Positions 4,499 to 21,631 of a stretch of DNA of 38,941 nucleotides are shown piece by piece (position 1 is the first letter of the stretch; the number at the start of each line of letters is the position of its first letter). The notes under the pieces are model-generated. The model saw only the letters and a program-made list of their open reading frames with translations, was not told the origin of the DNA and did no database searches. A program made the translations under genes and the position numbers. Source of the DNA: Candidatus Curtissbacteria bacterium RIFCSPLOWO2_02_FULL_40_11 (GTDB lineage Bacteria; Patescibacteriota; Microgenomatia; Curtissbacterales; GWA2-41-24); the NCBI GenBank assembly GCA_001776505.1, contig MFBV01000044.1, positions 1 to 38,941 of the forward strand. Reading direction: 5' to 3'.

Positions 4499-4536
4499 TT
4501 ATTTCTAGGTTAATCCCAACTTGTCATAATGTCTTT
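4499..4536 (-). pseudogene. rpsO: Second displaced rpsO 3'-end copy (decayed)
   Basis: AAA GAC ATT AT- GAC AAG TTG GGA TTA = KDI(I)DKLGL with a 1-nt deletion. Confidence 0.75.
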
Positions 4537-4569
4537 TAGACCGCTCGCGTTCGCAAGGACATTACCTTA

Positions 4570-4605
4570 TTACTTAGGTAAACCCAATTTATCTATTATA
4601 TCCTT
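4570..4605 (-). pseudogene. rpsO: First displaced rpsO 3'-end copy
   Basis: AAG GAT ATA ATA GAT AAA TTG GGT TTA CCT AAG TAA = [11 protein letters not shown], identical peptide to the rpsO end with 9 synonymous nt differences. Confidence 0.92.
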
Positions 4606-4673
4606 TATTAAGAACGGCGCACTATTGAAACAACGATTTCAATAGTAGTGTAGTCCTTAGCAAAGATATTATT
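4606..4673 (-). other. Structured spacer (attC-like hairpin) between active and displaced rpsO ends
   Basis: AATAATATCTTT-GC-..AAGGAC..ACTATTGAAA-TCGTTG-TTTCAATAGT..GTTCTT..TA; homologous to the spacer after rpsT. Confidence 0.7.
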
Positions 4674-4938
4674 TCGGCAAGCCTAGTTTATCAATAATAT
4701 CTTTATATCTTTCTGGCGCTTTTCTCGTTAAAAAATGAAGGAGTCGGCGCCTTTTATTGATCATTGATAGGAGGCCTCTCCTAGAGTGATTATCATGAGA
4801 GTGATTTTTTAGGTGATCTGCAACATTGCCAATTCTCTGAGAAAGAAGTGCTACCTGAACTTCTGGAGAACCGGTATCACCCTCGTGAGTTTTAAACTTG
4901 TCGATTACCTGTTTTTTTGCAGTCGATTTTGTAGCCAT
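4669..4938 (-). CDS. rpsO: 30S ribosomal protein S15
   Basis: [24 protein letters not shown]. Confidence 0.99.
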
Positions 4939-14937: not shown

Positions 14938-14940
14938 CTT

Positions 14941-15014
14941 TTATATTTTTAAAACTGCAAGAAAGCCTCCTGCGGTATATCTACTTGTCCAAAGCGGCGC
15001 ATGCGCTTTTTGCC
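14941..15014 (-). pseudogene. lepA: Displaced recoded lepA 3'-end copy
   Basis: GKKRMRRFGQVDIPQEAF(L)AVLKI* with a 1-nt deletion, versus active GKKRMRRFGNIDIPQEAFLAVLKI*. Confidence 0.93.
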
Positions 15015-15380
15015 TTAATGCGAATATAATTTAACTTCGGGCATTGGAAAATGCCGCTTATTGTAGGTAATTAATGTTAAATGAAAATTTGCGGCGGTTG
15101 CTGCAATCAGCATATCTGCAATATCAAGTCTGTACTTCTGTTTAAATGCGCCGGCTTTCTCTGCTATCTCGAAAGTAGCATCGAGGGGAAAGAAAATATT
15201 TTTTAGTTGCTTCACCACTTTTTCTGGCTGCTTGGTTAAACCGGCTCTAACTTCAGATATGGTAATAACGGAACAGTAAAGATTACCGATTTTTGAGAGG
15301 TTCTCTACTAGTCTTACTTCCTTTTCTCGACTCTTAAGAAACCAAATAATGACGTCTGAATCGACTAAATATTTATCCAC
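15015..15380 (-). CDS. vapC: VapC-like PIN-domain toxin
   Basis: YLVDSDVII, SVITISEV, DMLIAATA, LITYNKRHF. Confidence 0.92.
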   Translation of the reverse strand: MDKYLVDSDVIIWFLKSREKEVRLVENLSKIGNLYCSVITISEVRAGLTKQPEKVVKQLKNIFFPLDATFEIAEKAGAFKQKYRLDIADMLIAATAANFHLTLITYNKRHFPMPEVKLYSH

Positions 15381-15651
15381 GAATTTTCTTATTTAGACGA
15401 ACGTTCGTCGAGGCCCAAAGACTTCTTCGCCAAGCAGTCAGCTCCTTGTCCGATTTAAAATCTATACCGCCGGCTTTGGTCCATATTCCTTTTAATTTTT
15501 TCAAGCTTTCTTCCCTTTTAATTCTTGCGATTTTTTCTTTAAGGGCTTCTGCGATCACTTTACTTCTTTCTCTCGGGGAGATGATTTCCCTGAGATCTGC
15601 AGCTAAGTCTTTTGGTAATGTTATATTAATTCTGGAAACATTTGTGCTCAT
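15373..15651 (-). CDS. RHH-type antitoxin
   Basis: RINITLP..L..RSKVIAEAL; overlaps the toxin start. Confidence 0.85.
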   Translation of the reverse strand: MSTNVSRINITLPKDLAADLREIISPRERSKVIAEALKEKIARIKREESLKKLKGIWTKAGGIDFKSDKELTAWRRSLWASTNVRLNKKIRG

Positions 15652-15666
15652 AATCTATACACATTT

Positions 15667-15695
15667 ATAATACATACTTTAAATGCTCTTGTCAA
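15667..15695 (-). promoter_or_regulatory. Sigma70 promoter of the vapBC-like module
   Basis: TTGACA-17 nt-TATTAT with TG directly before the -10 box. Confidence 0.75.
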
Positions 15696-15704
15696 GGTCG
15701 TTTT

Positions 15705-17567
15705 TTAAATCTTTAACACAGCTAGGAACGCCTCTTGTGGTATGTCTATATTACCGAACCGCCTCATTCTTTTTTTACCTTTTTTCTGTTTCTCCAAGAG
15801 CTTTTTCTTGCGGGTGACATCCCCGCCATAGAGTTTTTGGGTGACGTCTTTGCGAAATGCAGGAATTGTTTCTCGGGCAATGATTTTTCCGCCGATTGCA
15901 GCTTGAAGGGGAATAGCTATCTGCTGGCGGGGAATAATGTCTTTTAATTTTTCTACCAGTTTTCTGCCAAATGTTTCGGATTTATCCTTATGTACCACCT
16001 GAGATAACCCTTCGACCTGTTCGTGATTAACTAAAATATCGAGTTTAACCAATTTTGATTCACGATACTCCCCGATTTCGAAATCAAAAGACGCAAAACC
16101 CGAAGTAGCACTTTTTAGCTGGTCATAAAAACCGATTAAAAGTTCGATTAAAGGAATTTCGGCTTCAATTTTTAAAGCGTTACCGATATTTTCAATATGT
16201 TTTTGTTCTCCTCTTTTGTCGTATATAAGATTAGAAATTACACCCATATATTTTTTGGGAGCAAATATTGTAACTATTGCAATTGGTTCTTTTAGAGATC
16301 TTGCCTGAGGATTAAACTGTTGAGCTTTATTAATAATTTCTCCGTCAACTTCAAAATTTACAGAAGGAGAAGTAACTATAATGTCTAAATCGTATTCTCT
16401 TTCCAGTCTCTCTTGAGTAATCTGCGCGTGTAGAAGCCCCAAAAATCCGCAACGGAAACCTTGGCCGAGTGATGTTGATGACTCCGAAGAAAAATTGAGT
16501 GCAGCGTCGTTTAGTTTTAATTTTTCGAGTCCTGTTTTCAATTTTTCGTGGTCATGAGGGTCGGTGGGATAAAAAGATAGGAAAACAACGGGCTTTGCTT
16601 CTTGATATCCGGGTAGAGAATTTGCGGGATTTTCGACGGTTGTTACTGTGTCTCCGACTTTTACGCAAGATAGATTTTTAATGTTTGTAATTATGTAACC
16701 GACTTCTCCATCTGATATTTTTTCAACTTGAGTGGGTTTTGGTGTCAAATAACCAATTTGCAGTACTTCGGCACGGGTTTTTGTTGCCAATAATAATATT
16801 TGATTACCAATTTTGATTTCACCACCAAAGAGCCTGATTGTTGCAATAACTCCTTTATAAGGGTCTAGAGAAGAATCGAATATTAAAGCCTGCAATCCCT
16901 CAGCTAAAGGCCAGGCCTTTTTGCTCACCGATAGACTAGACCCAAGGCCTGGCCTTGTTCTAGGTGATGGAACTTTTTTAATAATTGTTTCTATTACTTC
17001 TTCTACGTTTTCCCCTGTTTTTGCTGAAACTTTAATTATCTCGTCTTCTGAGAAACCCAATGCTTTTATTTCTTCGATGGTTTTTCCAATATTTGCCTGT
17101 GGGCTATCGATTTTATTGATAACTGGAATAATTGTGAGATTAGCGTCAAGCGACAATTTAAAATTGGCGAGTGTTTGTGCTTGAACTCCTTGCGTAGCGT
17201 CAACAATTAAAACTGCTCCTTCAACAGAAGCAAGAGATCTGGATACTTCGTAGGTAAAGTCAACGTGGCCGGGGGTATCGATGAGGTTCAGAATGTAATT
17301 CTGAACCGGTGAATGGTTAATGGTTAATGGTTCGTTGGCTTTTTCGTATTCGCGATGAACTATAAACGATGAACTATAAACCAGTCTTATAGCTTTAAGC
17401 TTAATCGTGATGCCGTATTCGCGTTCGAGTTCTAGACTGTCAAGAAGTTGTTCAGGGTGGCCCTTTTCGACAGCCCCGCAAATTTCCATGATGCGATCGG
17501 CAAGAGTTGATTTGCCGTGATCTATGTGTGCAACAAGACAGAAGTTACGGATGTTAGCTGTTTTCAT
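15705..17567 (-). CDS. lepA: Elongation factor 4 (LepA) with two in-frame repeat insertions
   Basis: AHIDHGKSTLADR, DTPGHVDF, GFRCGFLGLLH, KKLLEKQKKGKKRM. Confidence 0.98.
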   Translation of the reverse strand: MKTANIRNFCLVAHIDHGKSTLADRIMEICGAVEKGHPEQLLDSLELEREYGITIKLKAIRLVYSSSFIVHREYEKANEPLTINHSPVQNYILNLIDTPGHVDFTYEVSRSLASVEGAVLIVDATQGVQAQTLANFKLSLDANLTIIPVINKIDSPQANIGKTIEEIKALGFSEDEIIKVSAKTGENVEEVIETIIKKVPSPRTRPGLGSSLSVSKKAWPLAEGLQALIFDSSLDPYKGVIATIRLFGGEIKIGNQILLLATKTRAEVLQIGYLTPKPTQVEKISDGEVGYIITNIKNLSCVKVGDTVTTVENPANSLPGYQEAKPVVFLSFYPTDPHDHEKLKTGLEKLKLNDAALNFSSESSTSLGQGFRCGFLGLLHAQITQERLEREYDLDIIVTSPSVNFEVDGEIINKAQQFNPQARSLKEPIAIVTIFAPKKYMGVISNLIYDKRGEQKHIENIGNALKIEAEIPLIELLIGFYDQLKSATSGFASFDFEIGEYRESKLVKLDILVNHEQVEGLSQVVHKDKSETFGRKLVEKLKDIIPRQQIAIPLQAAIGGKIIARETIPAFRKDVTQKLYGGDVTRKKKLLEKQKKGKKRMRRFGNIDIPQEAFLAVLKI

Positions 17568-18971: not shown

Positions 18972-20642
18972 TTAGGGCGTCTGGTCTTGAGCATCGATAG
19001 AAGTAATTGGGGGCCTTTTTAATTTGCTTGGCCAAGTCATTACCCTTTTTAAGAAATGGGTAAAAATTATGAGCTGATCTATTTTGAAAAGATAAGAAAG
19101 AATTATGTAAACAGTAAGACCGGACAAGGTTGCAATGGTTGTCAAAAGAATCAGGCCAACAGTTCTTGTGGTGTCGAATACTAACTGGTCCAAAAGTTTC
19201 ATAGGGATGTATAGGGAAATAGCCGTAATAATTGTAATAATTCCCATCTTTATGGGAGGAACAAAAAAAGTATTAAAATCGAAGCCGCCAACTTTTTTAT
19301 GCAGGAAAAATAGAAGGCCGAGTGCGTTTAGTATCTGACCAATTGAGTAAGCGGCTGCAAGCCAAATTATGGAAAGTTTGAGGATAAAAACGAGAATAAT
19401 ACTTAATGCAATATTTGTGCCAATAGCAACAACACTCACTTTTACAGGGGTCGTGCTGTCTTTTAGAGCATAAAAGCTTCTGGTTAAAAGTAAGCTGATT
19501 GATTGAGCGGCAATCCCGATGGAAAAAGCAATCAGTACCCTTCCGGTTAAAACTGTAATTTCCCATGGAAGTTCCCGGGCACCAAATACAAGACGAACTG
19601 CGGGAACCCTAAGAATTGCAAGTATGGCTGCTGCCGGCAGAATTAAAAATAATATTTGGTGAAAAGATTCTGAGAATAATTTTTTGAATTCCTCTTTTTT
19701 ACCACCGTGATGATGGATAGACAATGTGGGCAGTGCCGCCTGGGAAATTGGTGCCGCGAAAAAAGCAATTGGTACAAGCTGTAGTACTTGGGCAAAATTA
19801 AAGGCAACTATTGAACCTATAGCGGCAATTGAGGCAAGGGCGATATTTATTATCTCGGAAAGCCGAGTTAAGCCCAGAGTTATTGACCGTGGCCACATTA
19901 AAAGAAACATTTCGCGAACATCTTTATTTTTGAGGTCGAAGCTAAATCTGAATTTAAACCCAAGATAAAAAACGAGCGGCAGCTGAACTACCATATGTAG
20001 TAGTGCTCCCAGTATCATTCCGAAGGCAGGCGCGTGAATTCCGATAACGGGAGATAGAAAAATAATTGAGATAATTATCCCGAGATTGTAAAAGATAGAT
20101 GCCACTGCCGGAATTAAAAATCTTTGGAAGGATTGTAGAATTCCGGTCAAGAAAATCGAGACTACAAAGAAAAGTTGGGCTAACAGCATTATTCTGAGTA
20201 ATCTGGCTATTAAAACTTGGGTGTTAGGGTCTTTGTCTATCAGACCGGGAGCGATGAGTGTAGCAATAGGTGAGGCAAAGATCATTATTATAATTGTGAA
20301 AATTGCGAATATTACAAGTGAGATTGTGATCATTGTGGAAGATAGCTTCCAGGCTTGTTCTAGCTTGTCACGAGATAGATATTGGGAAAAGATGGGAATA
20401 AATGCCAACGCAATGGTGCCAAAAATTAAAACTTCGAAAATAGCATCAGGCAAAATTGAGGCCGCGATAAAGCTATCCAAAAGCTTAATATCTTCACCGA
20501 AATAGGCTGCAAGTAAACGGTAGCGAATAAGCCCAAGAACTCTGGAAATTGCTACTGATACCGCGATTAAAAAGGCGGCGGAAAGAATATCTTCCTGTTT
20601 TCTTCTAAATATGTTCGCGCCGTTTTTGAAAATACTAATCAT
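18972..20642 (-). CDS. murJ: Lipid II flippase MurJ (MviN)
   Basis: ISRVLGLIRYRLLAAYFG, AFIPIF, RSFYALKDSTTP; many TM helices; start taken at MISIFKNG. Confidence 0.95.
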   Translation of the reverse strand: MISIFKNGANIFRRKQEDILSAAFLIAVSVAISRVLGLIRYRLLAAYFGEDIKLLDSFIAASILPDAIFEVLIFGTIALAFIPIFSQYLSRDKLEQAWKLSSTMITISLVIFAIFTIIIMIFASPIATLIAPGLIDKDPNTQVLIARLLRIMLLAQLFFVVSIFLTGILQSFQRFLIPAVASIFYNLGIIISIIFLSPVIGIHAPAFGMILGALLHMVVQLPLVFYLGFKFRFSFDLKNKDVREMFLLMWPRSITLGLTRLSEIINIALASIAAIGSIVAFNFAQVLQLVPIAFFAAPISQAALPTLSIHHHGGKKEEFKKLFSESFHQILFLILPAAAILAILRVPAVRLVFGARELPWEITVLTGRVLIAFSIGIAAQSISLLLTRSFYALKDSTTPVKVSVVAIGTNIALSIILVFILKLSIIWLAAAYSIGQILNALGLLFFLHKKVGGFDFNTFFVPPIKMGIITIITAISLYIPMKLLDQLVFDTTRTVGLILLTTIATLSGLTVYIILSYLFKIDQLIIFTHFLKRVMTWPSKLKRPPITSIDAQDQTP

Positions 20643-20661
20643 TGTGATAGAATTATGCCTC

Positions 20662-20780
20662 AATTGACCTAATTGACCTAATTGTATTAAATTTAGTCCA
20701 TTGAAGTGCGAGGTTAGAAGTGAGACAATCCAACTTCTCACATCAGTTTCTACACTCCCATTTCACACATCTCACTTCTA
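20662..20780. repeat. 9-mer tandem and inverted 7-nt periodic arrays between murJ and rpsT
   Basis: aattgacct x2; gaagtgc gaggtta gaagtga ... tcacaca tctcacttc. Confidence 0.6.
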
Positions 20781-20831
20781 GAACTGGGCTTTGGTCATTG
20801 GATATAAATTGTACTTAGAAATTTTAATGTT

Positions 20832-21098
20832 ATGCCAGTTACAAAACAAGCGATAAAAAAAGTTCGACAAGACAAGCGCAAGGCTATTTACAATGCACGA
20901 AAAAAAAGGGGCTATAAACAGGCTGTTAAGAATTACTTGAATAAACCAACAGCTGCAGCACTGCAAAAGGTCTTTAGTACTTTAGATAAAGCAATGAAAG
21001 TAAATATAATTCACAAGAATAAAGCGTCTAGATTAAAATCACAGCTAGCTAAAAAATTACCTTCTTCTAAATCCAAACCAAAAACTAGTTCGAAGTAG
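20832..21098 (+). CDS. rpsT: 30S ribosomal protein S20
   Basis: MPVTKQAIKKVRQDKRK, LDKA..IIHKNKASRLKSQL. Confidence 0.96.
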   Translation: MPVTKQAIKKVRQDKRKAIYNARKKRGYKQAVKNYLNKPTAAALQKVFSTLDKAMKVNIIHKNKASRLKSQLAKKLPSSKSKPKTSSK

Positions 21099-21158
21099 AC
21101 GCTTTGCGAGAATTTCGCAACTATCATAATCGTTGTTACGATAGTTCTCCATTCTCTA
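21096..21158 (+). other. Structured spacer (attC-like hairpin) between active and displaced rpsT ends
   Basis: TAGACGCTTT-GC-GAGAAT..ACTATCATAA-TCGTTG-TTACGATAGT..ATTCTC-TA. Confidence 0.7.
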
Positions 21159-21254
21159 AAAGCTGCAAGGCTTAAGTCTCAATTATCTAATAAACTACCG
21201 TCTTCAAAATCGAAAAAGGCTGCCACAACAACCGAAAAATCCCCTAAATCTTAA
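21159..21254 (+). pseudogene. rpsT: Displaced recoded rpsT 3'-end copy
   Basis: KAARLKSQLSNKLPSSKSKKAATTTEKSPKS* versus active KASRLKSQLAKKLPSSKSKPKTSSK*. Confidence 0.92.
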
Positions 21255-21260
21255 GGGCTT

Positions 21261-21327
21261 GACCCTTCGACTCGCTTCGCTCGCTCAGGGTCTGCGCCAT
21301 GAACTGAACTTCGTTCTAGTTCATGGC
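21261..21327. repeat. REP-like GACCCTTCGA..CTCAGGGTC plus hairpin GCCATGAACT..AGTTCATGGC
   Basis: Two adjacent stem-loops, 21261-92 and 21296-327. Confidence 0.7.
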
Positions 21328-21367
21328 TTGACAAACAATTTAATTTCCAGCTAAGCTTAAAGTAGGT

Positions 21368-21631
21368 ATGAAACTTTCAAGTCTGCGAAAGTCATTATTT
21401 TCTAAAGCTGTAGGTTTTTCATCTGCACTCGCAACTTCGCTGTACCTAGCTACAAGTGCGCTGGCGCAGACATCTACAGGTACCACAGGTACAACCACTA
21501 CAACCAAAGGTGGTACAACTTCGTCTTTACCGGAGGCGGGTACTACTGAGCTTACCTACCTACTGTTTATAGGTGGAATAGTTTTGTTTGTGATTGGAAC
21601 TATAAAGGTAGTTCAAAGCTTTAGAGAGTAA
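21368..21631 (+). CDS. Small exported Thr-rich protein with LPxAG sorting-like motif and C-terminal TM
   Basis: Signal peptide ending ALA-Q, Thr/Gly linker, LPEAGT, hydrophobic helix. Confidence 0.75.
   Translation: MKLSSLRKSLFSKAVGFSSALATSLYLATSALAQTSTGTTGTTTTTKGGTTSSLPEAGTTELTYLLFIGGIVLFVIGTIKVVQSFRE

Follow-up and report, generated by a model that had tools for sequence, protein, structure and literature searches.

rpsT and rpsO are each followed by a hairpin and a displaced tail

The window analyzed here is the whole of a 38,941-nucleotide contig (MFBV01000044.1) of Candidatus Curtissbacteria bacterium RIFCSPLOWO2_02_FULL_40_11. Positions 20832..21098 of its forward strand hold the open reading frame of rpsT (ribosomal protein S20; Pfam Ribosomal_S20p, E 3.3e-13), which ends in a tail that we regard as probably cassette-borne, for reasons given below. 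This live tail (21021..21098, forward strand; W to stop) reads KASRLKSQLAKKLPSSKSKPKTSSK followed by the stop, and its left junction is AAT|AAAGCG. The sequence TAGACGCTTT (21096..21105, forward strand) overlaps the stop codon and is reverse-complementary to the 10 nt with which the live tail begins. Match of this inverted copy, or 'guide', to the live-tail start (m_up) was 10, a value equaled by 0 of 200 shuffled guides, and its pairing with the displaced tail was limited to 5 nt.

The spacer between the two rpsT tails (21099-21158, forward strand) contains a hairpin with its bracket (21106..21158), as indicated by its fold, by covariation and by a score of 71.4 bits with model R1. A GC linker (21106-07) precedes helix H1, in which 21108-13 are paired to 21151-56; internal loops (21114-19 and 21146-50) lead to helix H2 (21120-29 paired to 21136-45) and its loop TCGTTG (21130-35), and the element closes with TA (21157-58). 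Behind it lies the displaced, or ghost, rpsT tail (21159..21254, forward strand; KAARLKSQLSNKLPSSKSKKAATTTEKSPKS), which is in-frame and open with a stop of its own. Live and ghost tails were identical at 16 of 25 aligned residues, 11 of the 16 being specified by different codons; the count reported in the first-pass annotation, 16 identities within the first 19 residues and 11 of them with different codons, held when repeated.

A 3,027-nt contig from another sequencing run (X9) showed 0 differences across 20830-21600, indicating that the rpsT arrangement is not an artifact of a single assembly. Genome G030, of the same genus, has a single rpsT tail with the hairpin absent, and represents an empty site. 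The first 26 nt of that tail matched the live tail of the present genome at 25 of 26 positions; over its full length it was 74% identical to the live tail and 73% identical to the displaced one. A metagenome scan with 26 nt of the ghost tail, seeking a lineage in which it is live, returned 0 matches, and neither a cassette-free joint nor a circle junction was present at 20600-21600 in the short, low-depth contigs of four runs.

The same arrangement was found on the reverse strand at rpsO (ribosomal protein S15; 4669..4938; Pfam Ribosomal_S15, E 3.4e-33). Its live tail (4704-4669), of which the 11-residue end was compared with the tail behind it, is followed by a spacer (4668-4606), and the 3' part of the cassette (4606..4673) was identified by its fold and by a model R1 score of 71.2 bits. 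The 12-nt guide AATAATATCTTT (4673-4662) again overlaps the stop; its m_up was 12, equaled by 0 of 200 shuffles. It is succeeded by GC (4661-60), a two-helix hairpin (4659-4609, loop TCGTTG at 4636-4631) and a linker to 4606. Displaced tail 2 (4570..4605) agrees with the live tail at 11 of 11 residues, the two differing by 9 synonymous and 0 non-synonymous changes. Further downstream is the end of an older mini-cassette (4537..4562, reverse strand), consisting of guide ATGTCCTT, GC, the 14-nt module GAACGCGAGCGGTC and TA, with orthologous units in G030 and G031. Behind this 14-nt mini-module lies displaced tail 3 (4499..4536, reverse strand), which has decayed by frameshift and resembles the live rpsO tail of G030. 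The rpsO region of G030 equals that of G031 plus one 69-nt unit, which separates the gene body from what had been the live tail; this tail is now displaced and bears a Gly-to-Glu change. At both rpsT and rpsO the junction precedes a Lys codon, as first described. The hairpin elements of the two genes lie on opposite strands of the one contig.

The spacers define a covarying hairpin family

The spacers behind rpsT and rpsO are members of a single hairpin family, with two covarying helices and the loop TCGTTG. The motif CTTTGC..TCGTTG occurs 2 times in the window compared to 0.12 expected, and the 26-nt core pattern 2 times compared to 0.00 expected. Both spacers adopt the same two-helix fold (z -3.4 and -4.3, respectively, relative to shuffles), confirming the shared hairpin design proposed in the first-pass annotation. 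That annotation had also noted compensatory stem changes between the two sequences. In an alignment of 70 hairpin copies, 92% of cells were paired and 15 of the 16 pairs changed on both sides. Conservation within the core is concentrated in the loop and the outer 5 nt of each arm, and the inner arm bases covary; stems are nearly perfect, with an outer stem that is free in sequence.

Scanning the genome and its relatives with model R1 identified 7 copies in this 938-kb genome, mostly abutting coding sequence, and 56 further copies in 26 of the 31 other genomes of the family. At wider taxonomic scales, R1 matched 28 of 34 genomes from the order and 13 of the 151 sampled from the class; the exact hairpin core was found at 22 metagenome loci. 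Target genes of the family include those for S20, S15, S10, S3, S7, L7/L12, L36, H+-PPase, SecA and GAPDH, as well as 5S and 23S ends and tRNA genes. Hairpins at protein genes always lie in the sense direction, directly after the stop. The subtype linked to tRNAs is antisense to the tRNA and its geometry is only partly explained; 10 of 19 had a repeat of the tRNA gene end that matched in at least 13 of 17 nt. Members of a third subtype, with the conserved 5' sequence GCGACTTCGTCCGC, adjoin neither tRNAs nor tails, and a search for a neighboring ORF shared among them found none. No ORF was seen between live tail and ghost in the sequence surroundings inspected for copies from the family, the class sample and the metagenomes; spacers measured 26-62 nt.

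The proposed cassettes carry an inverted copy of their own start and share an insertion-site motif

The hairpin-tail observation is larger than first noted, and the copies share one order: a replacement 3' end with its stop, a few bases, an inverted copy of 8-16 nt, GC, a two-helix hairpin of ~50 nt, and TA, for a total of 70-140 nt. The inverted copy is the reverse complement of the upstream site at which the duplicated tail begins. Of 35 copies at protein genes, 27 had such a match over at least 8 contiguous nt (maximum 16) directly 5' of the GC, the observed value being equaled in no more than 3 of 200 shuffles of the guide. The 3' flank usually paired with it over 0-5 nt. The remaining 8 of 35 copies had fewer than 8 contiguous complementary bases, which counts against the cassette model set out below. 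One copy in this genome (C6) has an inverted copy that fits the displaced tail better than its own tail start (11 nt compared to 8), and within a lineage of rplL cassettes the inverted copy and the tail start changed in step, as judged by eye.

The element is tied to tail duplication: in 23 of 27 well-defined copies, at least 8 of 12 nt of the 3' flank agreed with the tail start. Live and displaced peptides were identical at 18-20 of 21 residues for S10 and L7/L12 and at 25-26 of 27 for H+-PPase. The insertion site is WAT|AARG, ahead of the resident tail. Among 27 copies, counted by eye as 14 target loci, the 5' side had T at -1 in 26, A at -2 in 24, and A or T at -3 in 26; the 3' side had A at +1 in all 27, A at +2 in 26 and G at +4 in 21. 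The right end of the cassette reads CTA|AARG.

Cassettes stack, the newest unit adjoining the gene body. The same layout was seen at loci with other modules, one of which (C22) has five tandem tails and another of which (C18) is inserted in frame and read through. Tail duplication likewise accompanied mini-modules without the 10-6-10 core. When the genome was searched for the layout alone (W .. reverse complement of W, G[CT], module, TA, W'), 23 matches were obtained compared to 9-16 in shuffles; ~10 of the 23 were judged real, and the scan is too noisy for counting other-module cassettes. Among 13 ghost-tail islands bearing cargo that were checked, none had the inverted-copy layout right after the stop.

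Tails are imported and decay once displaced

Live and displaced tails differed with a pS of 0.90 and a pN of 0.15. Since they encode nearly the same peptide with saturated synonymous sites, we conclude that tails were imported rather than duplicated in place. At identical residues of tail pairs, 165 of 257 codons differed, compared to 157.7 expected for independent draws from the codon usage of the genome; extra selection for dissimilar codons beyond saturation was not supported (z = 1.0). Displaced tails decay, as illustrated by a frameshift in the rpsT ghost of G008, by tail 3 of rpsO in the present genome and by a ghost in G004 that was split by another insertion. Many ghost tails are still open frames.

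A proposed model of mobile tail cassettes

Taken together, we consider it likely that these spacers are the 3' ends of small, non-autonomous, site-specific mobile elements, or 'tail cassettes', that have no ORF. Such a cassette would enter a gene at WAT|AARG in register with the resident tail; the gene would then terminate in the imported tail, leaving the resident tail untranslated and decaying behind the hairpin, and later cassettes would use the same entry point to produce stacked tails. Insertion and excision may take place on folded single-stranded DNA, with an enzyme supplied in trans. The inverted copy could pair with the first bases of the cassette to define its left boundary, and a poorer pairing with the target or the displaced tail could define the right one. 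These pairings would mark both cut sites, similar to the short guide by the hairpin foot of IS200/IS605 and REP/RAYT elements. If a cassette were circularized, its inverted copy, hairpin and first bases would fold together as one long, perfect stem-loop. Spread among close relatives may additionally proceed by homologous recombination in which gene body and ghost tail provide the flanking arms.

The leading enzyme candidates are RAYT-like Y1 transposases. Eight RAYT-like genes (Y1_Tnp) are present in the genome, with REP-associated tyrosine transposase as their best NCBIfam match; the Y1 proteins scored 42-71 bits, below the NCBIfam RAYT cut-off of 80. Three of the 8 genes have AAGGx..xCCTT palindromes within 160 nt, compared to 1.7% of random places, and the foot of these palindromes is the same as that of the cassette stem. 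Two RAYT-like genes are themselves cargo between a live tail and a ghost. None of the 8 is flanked by a TCGTTG hairpin. Across the genomes of the family, Y1_Tnp did not track with the hairpin, G013 having 7 hairpins and no Y1 match, and in the class sample Y1 matches were present in 7 of 13 hairpin-positive and 89 of 138 hairpin-negative genomes, revealing no association.

We also entertain, as a doubtful extension, that the cassettes form a programmable DNA-guided system, in which the inverted copy directs a trans-acting single-strand nuclease or transferase, the synonymously diverged tail serves as a rescue copy, and new cassettes arise when the guide is re-templated. A given cassette would in that case target a single position in a single essential gene, making it in effect a selfish 'cleave-and-rescue' invader of ribosomal, rRNA and tRNA genes in these ultra-small groundwater bacteria. 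If the inverted copy truly guides cutting, single-strand insertion would be directed by a DNA-encoded guide that is long, at 8-16 nt.

If tail cassettes are real, mobile DNA of ~100 nt and without genes can inhabit essential genes in the absence of splicing, by providing a spare end. In these bacteria the ends of genes for ribosomal proteins, rRNAs and tRNAs would be mosaics exchanged across lineages, which matters for marker-gene phylogenies and for the binning of genomes of the candidate phyla radiation, and also for gene calling, given ghost tails and in-frame hairpins. The cassettes would further offer a testable case for how cassettes with folded recombination sites arise.

Alternative explanations

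The alternative that fares best, which we nevertheless consider unlikely, holds that the arrangements are recombination scars left by no dedicated mechanism, the hairpin being a conserved 3'-flank structure of donor genes. DNA from relatives would recombine homologously in the gene body and, downstream, either illegitimately or between diverged homologues, so that the donor's tail and then its flank come to stand ahead of the recipient tail. Exchange among relatives is indeed shown by synonymous saturation and by the patchwork of tails, the genome has at least 10 other ghost-tail islands with cargo genes and without the inverted-copy layout, and no enzyme is associated with the hairpin. However, scars leave unexplained why 27 of 35 copies contain an inverted copy of the first bases of the cassette, why WAT|AARG is common to 14 unrelated targets (counted by eye), and why the GC..TA bracket is constant. 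They likewise fail to account for one hairpin family behind a dozen different genes, rRNA ends and tRNAs, or for the exact unit-sized difference between G030 and G031.

We deem it quite improbable that the system is integron-like, with the folded stem as a single-stranded site resembling attC that is acted on by a tyrosine recombinase, the gene body as platform and the tails as cassettes. The geometry resembles that of integron cassettes, arrays keep the newest unit nearest the platform, and four Xer-like tyrosine recombinases are encoded in the genome. An integron integrase was nonetheless absent from this genome, which is 94.8% complete: the best TIGR02249 score was 123 bits for the whole protein (83.7 for the best match), compared to a cut-off of 265. 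Moreover, the outer stem is free in sequence, cassettes with ORFs are absent, the many target genes leave no single platform, and Rfam gave nothing.

A role of the hairpin as RNA is less probable still. It could stabilize the 3' UTR or act as a processing signal, or it could be removed like an intron to join the gene body to the downstream tail, in which case that tail would stay under selection. Consistent with such a role, the hairpin lies in the sense orientation just after the stop in protein genes, covariation suits RNA as well as single-stranded DNA, and many ghosts are still open frames. Ghosts decay, however, and tRNA-linked copies are antisense to the tRNA. Rfam returned 0 matches at gathering thresholds, and a permissive scan gave only E values above 4; in a terminator scan of the gene strand the hairpin was not listed, and it has no terminator-like U tract. 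The element matches no Rfam family and is not terminator-like, an outcome that the first-pass annotation had singled out for checking, and an RNA role leaves duplication, stacking and the insertion motif all unexplained.

Finally, we give almost no credence to a double-stranded site of the Xer/dif type, with recombinase monomers on the 10-nt arms and exchange in the 6-nt center: the 10-6-10 layout, the conserved loop and outer 5 nt per arm, and an XerC/D-like gene in the genome favor it, but the inner arm bases covary rather than being conserved, the arms of both helices covary and move as a set, junctions lie outside the hairpin at its foot (TA|AARG), modules without the 10-6-10 core act alike, and there are 7 copies per genome, compared to one Xer/dif site per replicon. 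Hybrid hairpins, with halves from different cassettes, numbered 0 among the 70 copies. The original proposal of a conserved recombination site or structured RNA is thereby retained in part: the element is conserved and base-paired, recombination or transposition is its best reading, and the likeness to Xer/dif sites is not supported.

Comparison of tail cassettes with known systems

A literature search of limited depth returned no description of such cassettes in these bacteria. The closest likeness in the exchange of gene ends is to the mobile endonuclease ORFs (mORFs) of fungal mitochondria, which bring with them a foreign C-terminus for atp6, atp9, cox2 or nad3 (Glomus sp.; Allomyces macrogynus atp6; PMC3630166). 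As in the proposed cassettes, an in-frame foreign end replaces the native one, which persists downstream and is unexpressed; the two ends differ mainly at synonymous sites, and their origin is read as horizontal transfer (PMC3630166). The fungal inserts also hold a ~1-kb gene for a LAGLIDADG or GIY-YIG endonuclease, shown to drive mobility (PMC3630166). Unlike mORFs, tail cassettes have no endonuclease ORF; they terminate in a conserved hairpin that is accompanied by an inverted copy of the cassette start. They stack in arrays and also target rRNA and tRNA genes.

With respect to the hairpin, the relevant systems are IS200/IS605 and REP/RAYT elements, in which the cleavage site base-pairs with a short guide located immediately 5' to the hairpin foot (PMC6006769). 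Small hairpins are recognized in these systems, and non-autonomous hairpins are served in trans (PMC6006769). In 27 of 35 copies, tail cassettes likewise have a complementary stretch, at a distance of 2 nt from the foot. RAYT-like genes are abundant in the Curtissbacteria genomes examined here. The guides differ in length, those of cassettes being 8-16 nt and specific to the target gene compared to 4 nt in the IS200/IS605-REP/RAYT family. Each cassette has one hairpin, whereas IS elements have one at each end; REP sequences are high-copy extragenic hairpins, whereas cassettes occur in 7 copies that mostly abut coding sequence. Cassettes also differ from both IS200/IS605 and REP elements in carrying a functional gene end and in lacking a statistical link to Y1 genes.

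Integron cassettes offer a third comparison. In an integron cassette, the 3' site base-pairs through its 5' arm with the first bases of the same cassette, the downstream partner being supplied by the following unit. Tail cassettes share with attC a folded single-strand site that closes the cassette, as well as tandem stacking with the newest unit nearest the platform. They differ in that there is no integrase, the payload is a gene end, platforms are many and the outer stem is free in sequence.

Integrative islands at tRNA and tmRNA genes restore the 3' end of their target with a partial attL/attR duplication; they are several kb in length and encode an integrase, and their repeats are near-identical because the crossover occurs inside them. 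At tRNA genes, tail cassettes resemble these islands in supplying a new 3' end to the target while its former end stays behind as a direct repeat. In contrast to the islands, cassettes are ~100 nt long and without ORFs, and divergence between their tails has reached saturation.

Rickettsia palindromic elements and other in-frame MITEs are tolerated within essential genes, where they add residues to the protein. Tail cassettes, unlike these elements, end the protein with their own tail and stop and duplicate the target; copy C18, which is read through in frame, is similar to them.

Duplicated tails and a shared hairpin at rpsT and rpsO

In this genome (938 kb in 45 contigs, 38.9% G+C, the window being contig C44), rpsT (20832-21098, + strand; Pfam S20 match) ends in KASRLKSQLAKKLPSSKSKPKTSSK and a stop codon, followed directly by a 60-nt spacer and, in frame, by a second tail (21159-21254, +) that reads KAARLKSQLSNKLPSSKSKKAATTTEKSPKS and a stop. 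Likewise, rpsO (4938-4669, - strand; Pfam S15 match) is followed by a 63-nt spacer, beyond which its last 11 residues and a stop codon are specified a second time, with 9 synonymous and 0 non-synonymous differences between the copies; rpsO has three tails altogether, the last one frameshifted. The first-pass annotation had proposed that the two spacers share a hairpin site, an observation that proved both real and general. The pattern CTTTGC..TCGTTG common to both gave 2 matches compared to 0.12 expected, and the common 26-nt core pattern gave 2 compared to 0.00. Both spacers adopt the same predicted fold (z -3.4 and -4.3), consisting of an outer helix of 6-7 bp, an internal loop of 6 x 5 nt, an inner helix of 10 bp and the loop TCGTTG. 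Reading both rpsT peptides likewise bore out the earlier count of 16 identities among the first 19 residues, 11 of them with different codons; the same 16 are found over all 25 aligned residues. The rpsT arrangement (20830-21600) was matched without difference by a 3,027-nt contig from an independent run.

Directly 3' of the stop of the displaced rpsT tail (hereafter, displaced tails are ghosts and those joined to the gene body live tails) lies a GC-rich hairpin repeat (21255-21300, +). Its summed contig depth in four metagenome runs was 22-235, compared to about 3-6 in the flanks, and this excess indicates that it belongs to a widespread repeat family.

A covarying hairpin family

A covariance model built from six copies in this genome identified 7 copies here, 56 copies in 26 of the 31 other genomes of the family, at least one match in 28 of 34 genomes of the order, and a match in 13 of 151 sampled genomes of the class; metagenome contigs with the exact 24-nt core contributed 22 loci. 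Across 70 aligned copies, standard pairs filled 92% of cells, compared to 72% after shuffling and 35-46% when the partners were slid, and 15 of 16 pairs displayed changes on both sides. Fitting this alignment to the model favors structure, albeit the size of the effect lies far beyond that bias. An Rfam search with the element matched no family, a terminator scan of the gene strand failed to flag it, and the suggested likeness of its core to Xer/dif-type sites was not supported.

Most units of the protein-gene type carry an inverted copy of their own start

The 63 family matches comprise 35 copies of a protein-gene type, 17 linked to tRNA genes and 11 others. The foot of the protein-gene type reads ..CYTT-GC-helix..helix-TA/AARG (the slash marks the junction). 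In 27 of these 35 copies, a stretch of 8 to 16 contiguous nt that abuts the GC on its 5' side is reverse-complementary to a site farther upstream, namely the start of the duplicated tail; at most 3 of 200 shuffled guides reached a value as high. The inverted copy measures 10 nt at rpsT, where it includes the stop codon, 12 nt at rpsO and 14 nt at rplL, while its pairing with the 3' flank mostly extends over only 0-5 nt. Since the inverted copy complements the tail start (W), the unit runs from W to the TA of the hairpin. Its order is W, remaining tail, stop, inverted copy, GC, hairpin and TA. The displaced tail begins next, and its start (W') matches W at no fewer than 8 of 12 nt in 23 of the 27 copies. 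Closed on itself, such a unit would form one long perfect stem-loop of inverted copy, hairpin and W. In the S7 cassette of another genome of the family (L063, G010:C14:83553-83615), the site that the inverted copy matches, the start of KAVAKREEM.., lies 215 nt upstream, and the displaced tail is KAFAHFRW and a stop only; thus either the carried tail exceeds the displaced one in length or the ghost has lost part of its sequence.

Two genomes of the same genus as this one, G030 and G031, reveal the order of insertion. In G031, rpsO has a live tail, a mini-module (a short module lacking the 10-6-10 core) and a ghost. G030 has exactly this arrangement, plus one further unit of 69 nt (tail, inverted copy, GC, 17-nt module, TA). 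This unit separates the gene body from what was the live tail, which is now displaced and bears a Gly-to-Glu change. This series indicates that insertion of a new unit takes place where the gene body meets the tail, and that the unit is a tail plus module rather than a module plus downstream tail. The rpsT gene of G030, with a single tail and no hairpin, represents an empty site.

Two further loci were noted in the genome under study. At C22:6334-6914 (-), one gene is followed by five tandem tails, each KEFLDSLSKDVK and a stop, with GC-rich modules of two kinds alternating between them; one block of 163 nt, comprising two cassettes, occurs twice. At C18:5397-5416 (-), the cassette layout recurs around a GC-rich module (W, its reverse complement, GC, module, TA, W'), close to the 5' end of a gene with a GGDGT motif (NAD kinase-like by eye); the reading frame runs on through it without a stop.

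Targets share a short insertion motif

Pfam confirmed as targets the ribosomal proteins S20, S15, S10, S3, S7, L7/L12 and L36, as well as H+-pyrophosphatase, M50 peptidase, SecA, an HTH protein and GAPDH. Sequence contexts judged by eye only add the 3' ends of 5S and 23S rRNA, S14, SmpB-like and pilC-like genes, a tRNA gene 5' end and ribosome-binding-site regions. The left junction of 27 well-defined copies, equal to 14 target loci counted by eye, has the consensus W-A-T/A-A-R-G (here W is A or T): A or T at -3 (26/27), A at -2 (24/27), T at -1 (26/27), A at +1 (27/27), A at +2 (26/27), A or G at +3 (24/27) and G at +4 (21/27). The right junction reads CTA/AARG. That unrelated genes have this 7-nt site in common points to site specificity at some step, and away from illegitimate joining at random.

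The replacement tails evolved in other lineages

Duplication of the tails in place, followed by decay of the copy that is not translated, would leave mostly amino-acid-changing differences. Instead, 16 tail pairs gave a pS of 0.90 and a pN of 0.15, and 165 of 257 same-residue codons differed, compared to 157.7 for independent draws from genome codon usage (z = 1.0). This mostly synonymous divergence argues against in-place duplication, and indicates that both copies evolved live in separate lineages. Two pairs are much closer (7 of 18 codons differing in G003 and 4 of 19 in G025, both genomes of the family); the G025 pair contains a 46-nt identical block, as would be expected from gene conversion. 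Ghost tails decay at several loci. Hairpins behind the same gene are alike in different genera, as in the S10 cassettes of four genera, indicating that cassette lineages travel with their tail.

Candidate mechanism and enzymes

Homologous recombination, with gene body and ghost as arms, could transfer a cassette from one close relative to another; it does not account for the inverted copy or the insertion motif. We instead favor cutting and joining on folded single-stranded DNA, because the hairpin is conserved in pairing rather than sequence, its foot adjoins a complementary stretch, the target motif is short and fixed, insertions are exactly one unit in size, and no copy contains an ORF. Pairing with the inverted copy may mark the cut sites, by analogy to IS200/IS605 transposases and REP-associated RAYTs, in which a tetranucleotide beside the hairpin foot marks cut sites by pairing (PMC6006769).

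This genome has eight RAYT-like Y1 genes of 200-231 aa (contigs C37, C26 [two], C32, C36, C13, C30 and C35). For the six scanned, the best NCBIfam match was REP-associated tyrosine transposase, with scores of 42-71 bits that fall short of the cut-off (80). Perfect AAGGx..xCCTT palindromes, whose foot is the same as that of the cassette stem, lie within 160 nt of 3 of the 8 genes, compared to 1.7% of random places, and the C30 and C35 genes are themselves cargo between a live tail and a ghost. Several of the eight are bracketed by short AAGG..CCTT palindromes, then TA/AAAG. Three observations count against these genes as the candidate enzyme: the cassette hairpin flanked 0 of the 8 in this genome, the family genome G013 has seven hairpins and no Y1 match, and in the class sample Y1 matches occurred in 7 of 13 hairpin-positive versus 89 of 138 hairpin-negative genomes. 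No integron integrase was found in the genome. The reading that fits best is a small, non-autonomous mobile cassette by which the ends of essential genes are replaced.

Relation to known systems

The closest described tail replacement is that of fungal mitochondria, in which mORFs encoding an endonuclease bring along a foreign C-terminus; the native C-terminus remains downstream, and the two differ largely at synonymous sites (PMC3630166). Here, in contrast, the same outcome comes from units of ~100 nt without a gene, which end in a hairpin and a built-in complement of their own start. Integron cassettes are similar in geometry, and IS200/REP elements in guide use; each of these three families has a defining feature that was looked for and is lacking here, namely an endonuclease ORF between the two ends (mORFs), an integron integrase (integrons), and a hairpin at both element ends or high-copy extragenic hairpins (IS200/REP). 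Search listings contained no account of cassettes of this kind from these bacteria. The present analysis connects hairpin, inverted copy, insertion motif and tail replacement with one another.

Cargo-bearing islands and tRNA-linked copies

Next to lepA (15705-17567; Pfam LepA_C) lies an island (14940-15705, -) with a 77-nt ghost of the lepA tail 688 nt downstream (55 of 77 nt identical), the cargo between them being a PIN-domain gene (15015-15380) and a 92-aa ORF. The cargo resembles a toxin-antitoxin pair brought in through tail replacement; the layout of inverted copy and hairpin was not seen in this island. At least 10 loci in the genome have cargo islands of 0.5-3.8 kb between live tail and ghost (examples are C4:1818, C2:3527, C6:4869, C9:11176, C31:2113 and C32:68467), likewise without the hairpin layout.

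We examined 26 copies outside the protein-gene type (the 17 tRNA-linked and 9 of the 11 others). In 19, an intact tRNA gene on the opposite strand starts 7-72 nt past the hairpin, and in 10 of these 19 the 5' flank carries a copy of the tRNA 3' end (at least 13 of 17 nt matching). The 3' flank of tRNA-linked copies opens with the rest of the T-loop, and a small covarying stem of their own takes the place of the long tail. These copies may be read as cases in which the 3' end of a tRNA gene was replaced by a unit whose hairpin faces the other way. One metagenome locus (L102) has a protein-gene-type cassette antisense to a tRNA gene, duplicating, by eye, the first ~14 nt of the tRNA; there, the replaced end is the 5' end of the gene, not the 3' end.
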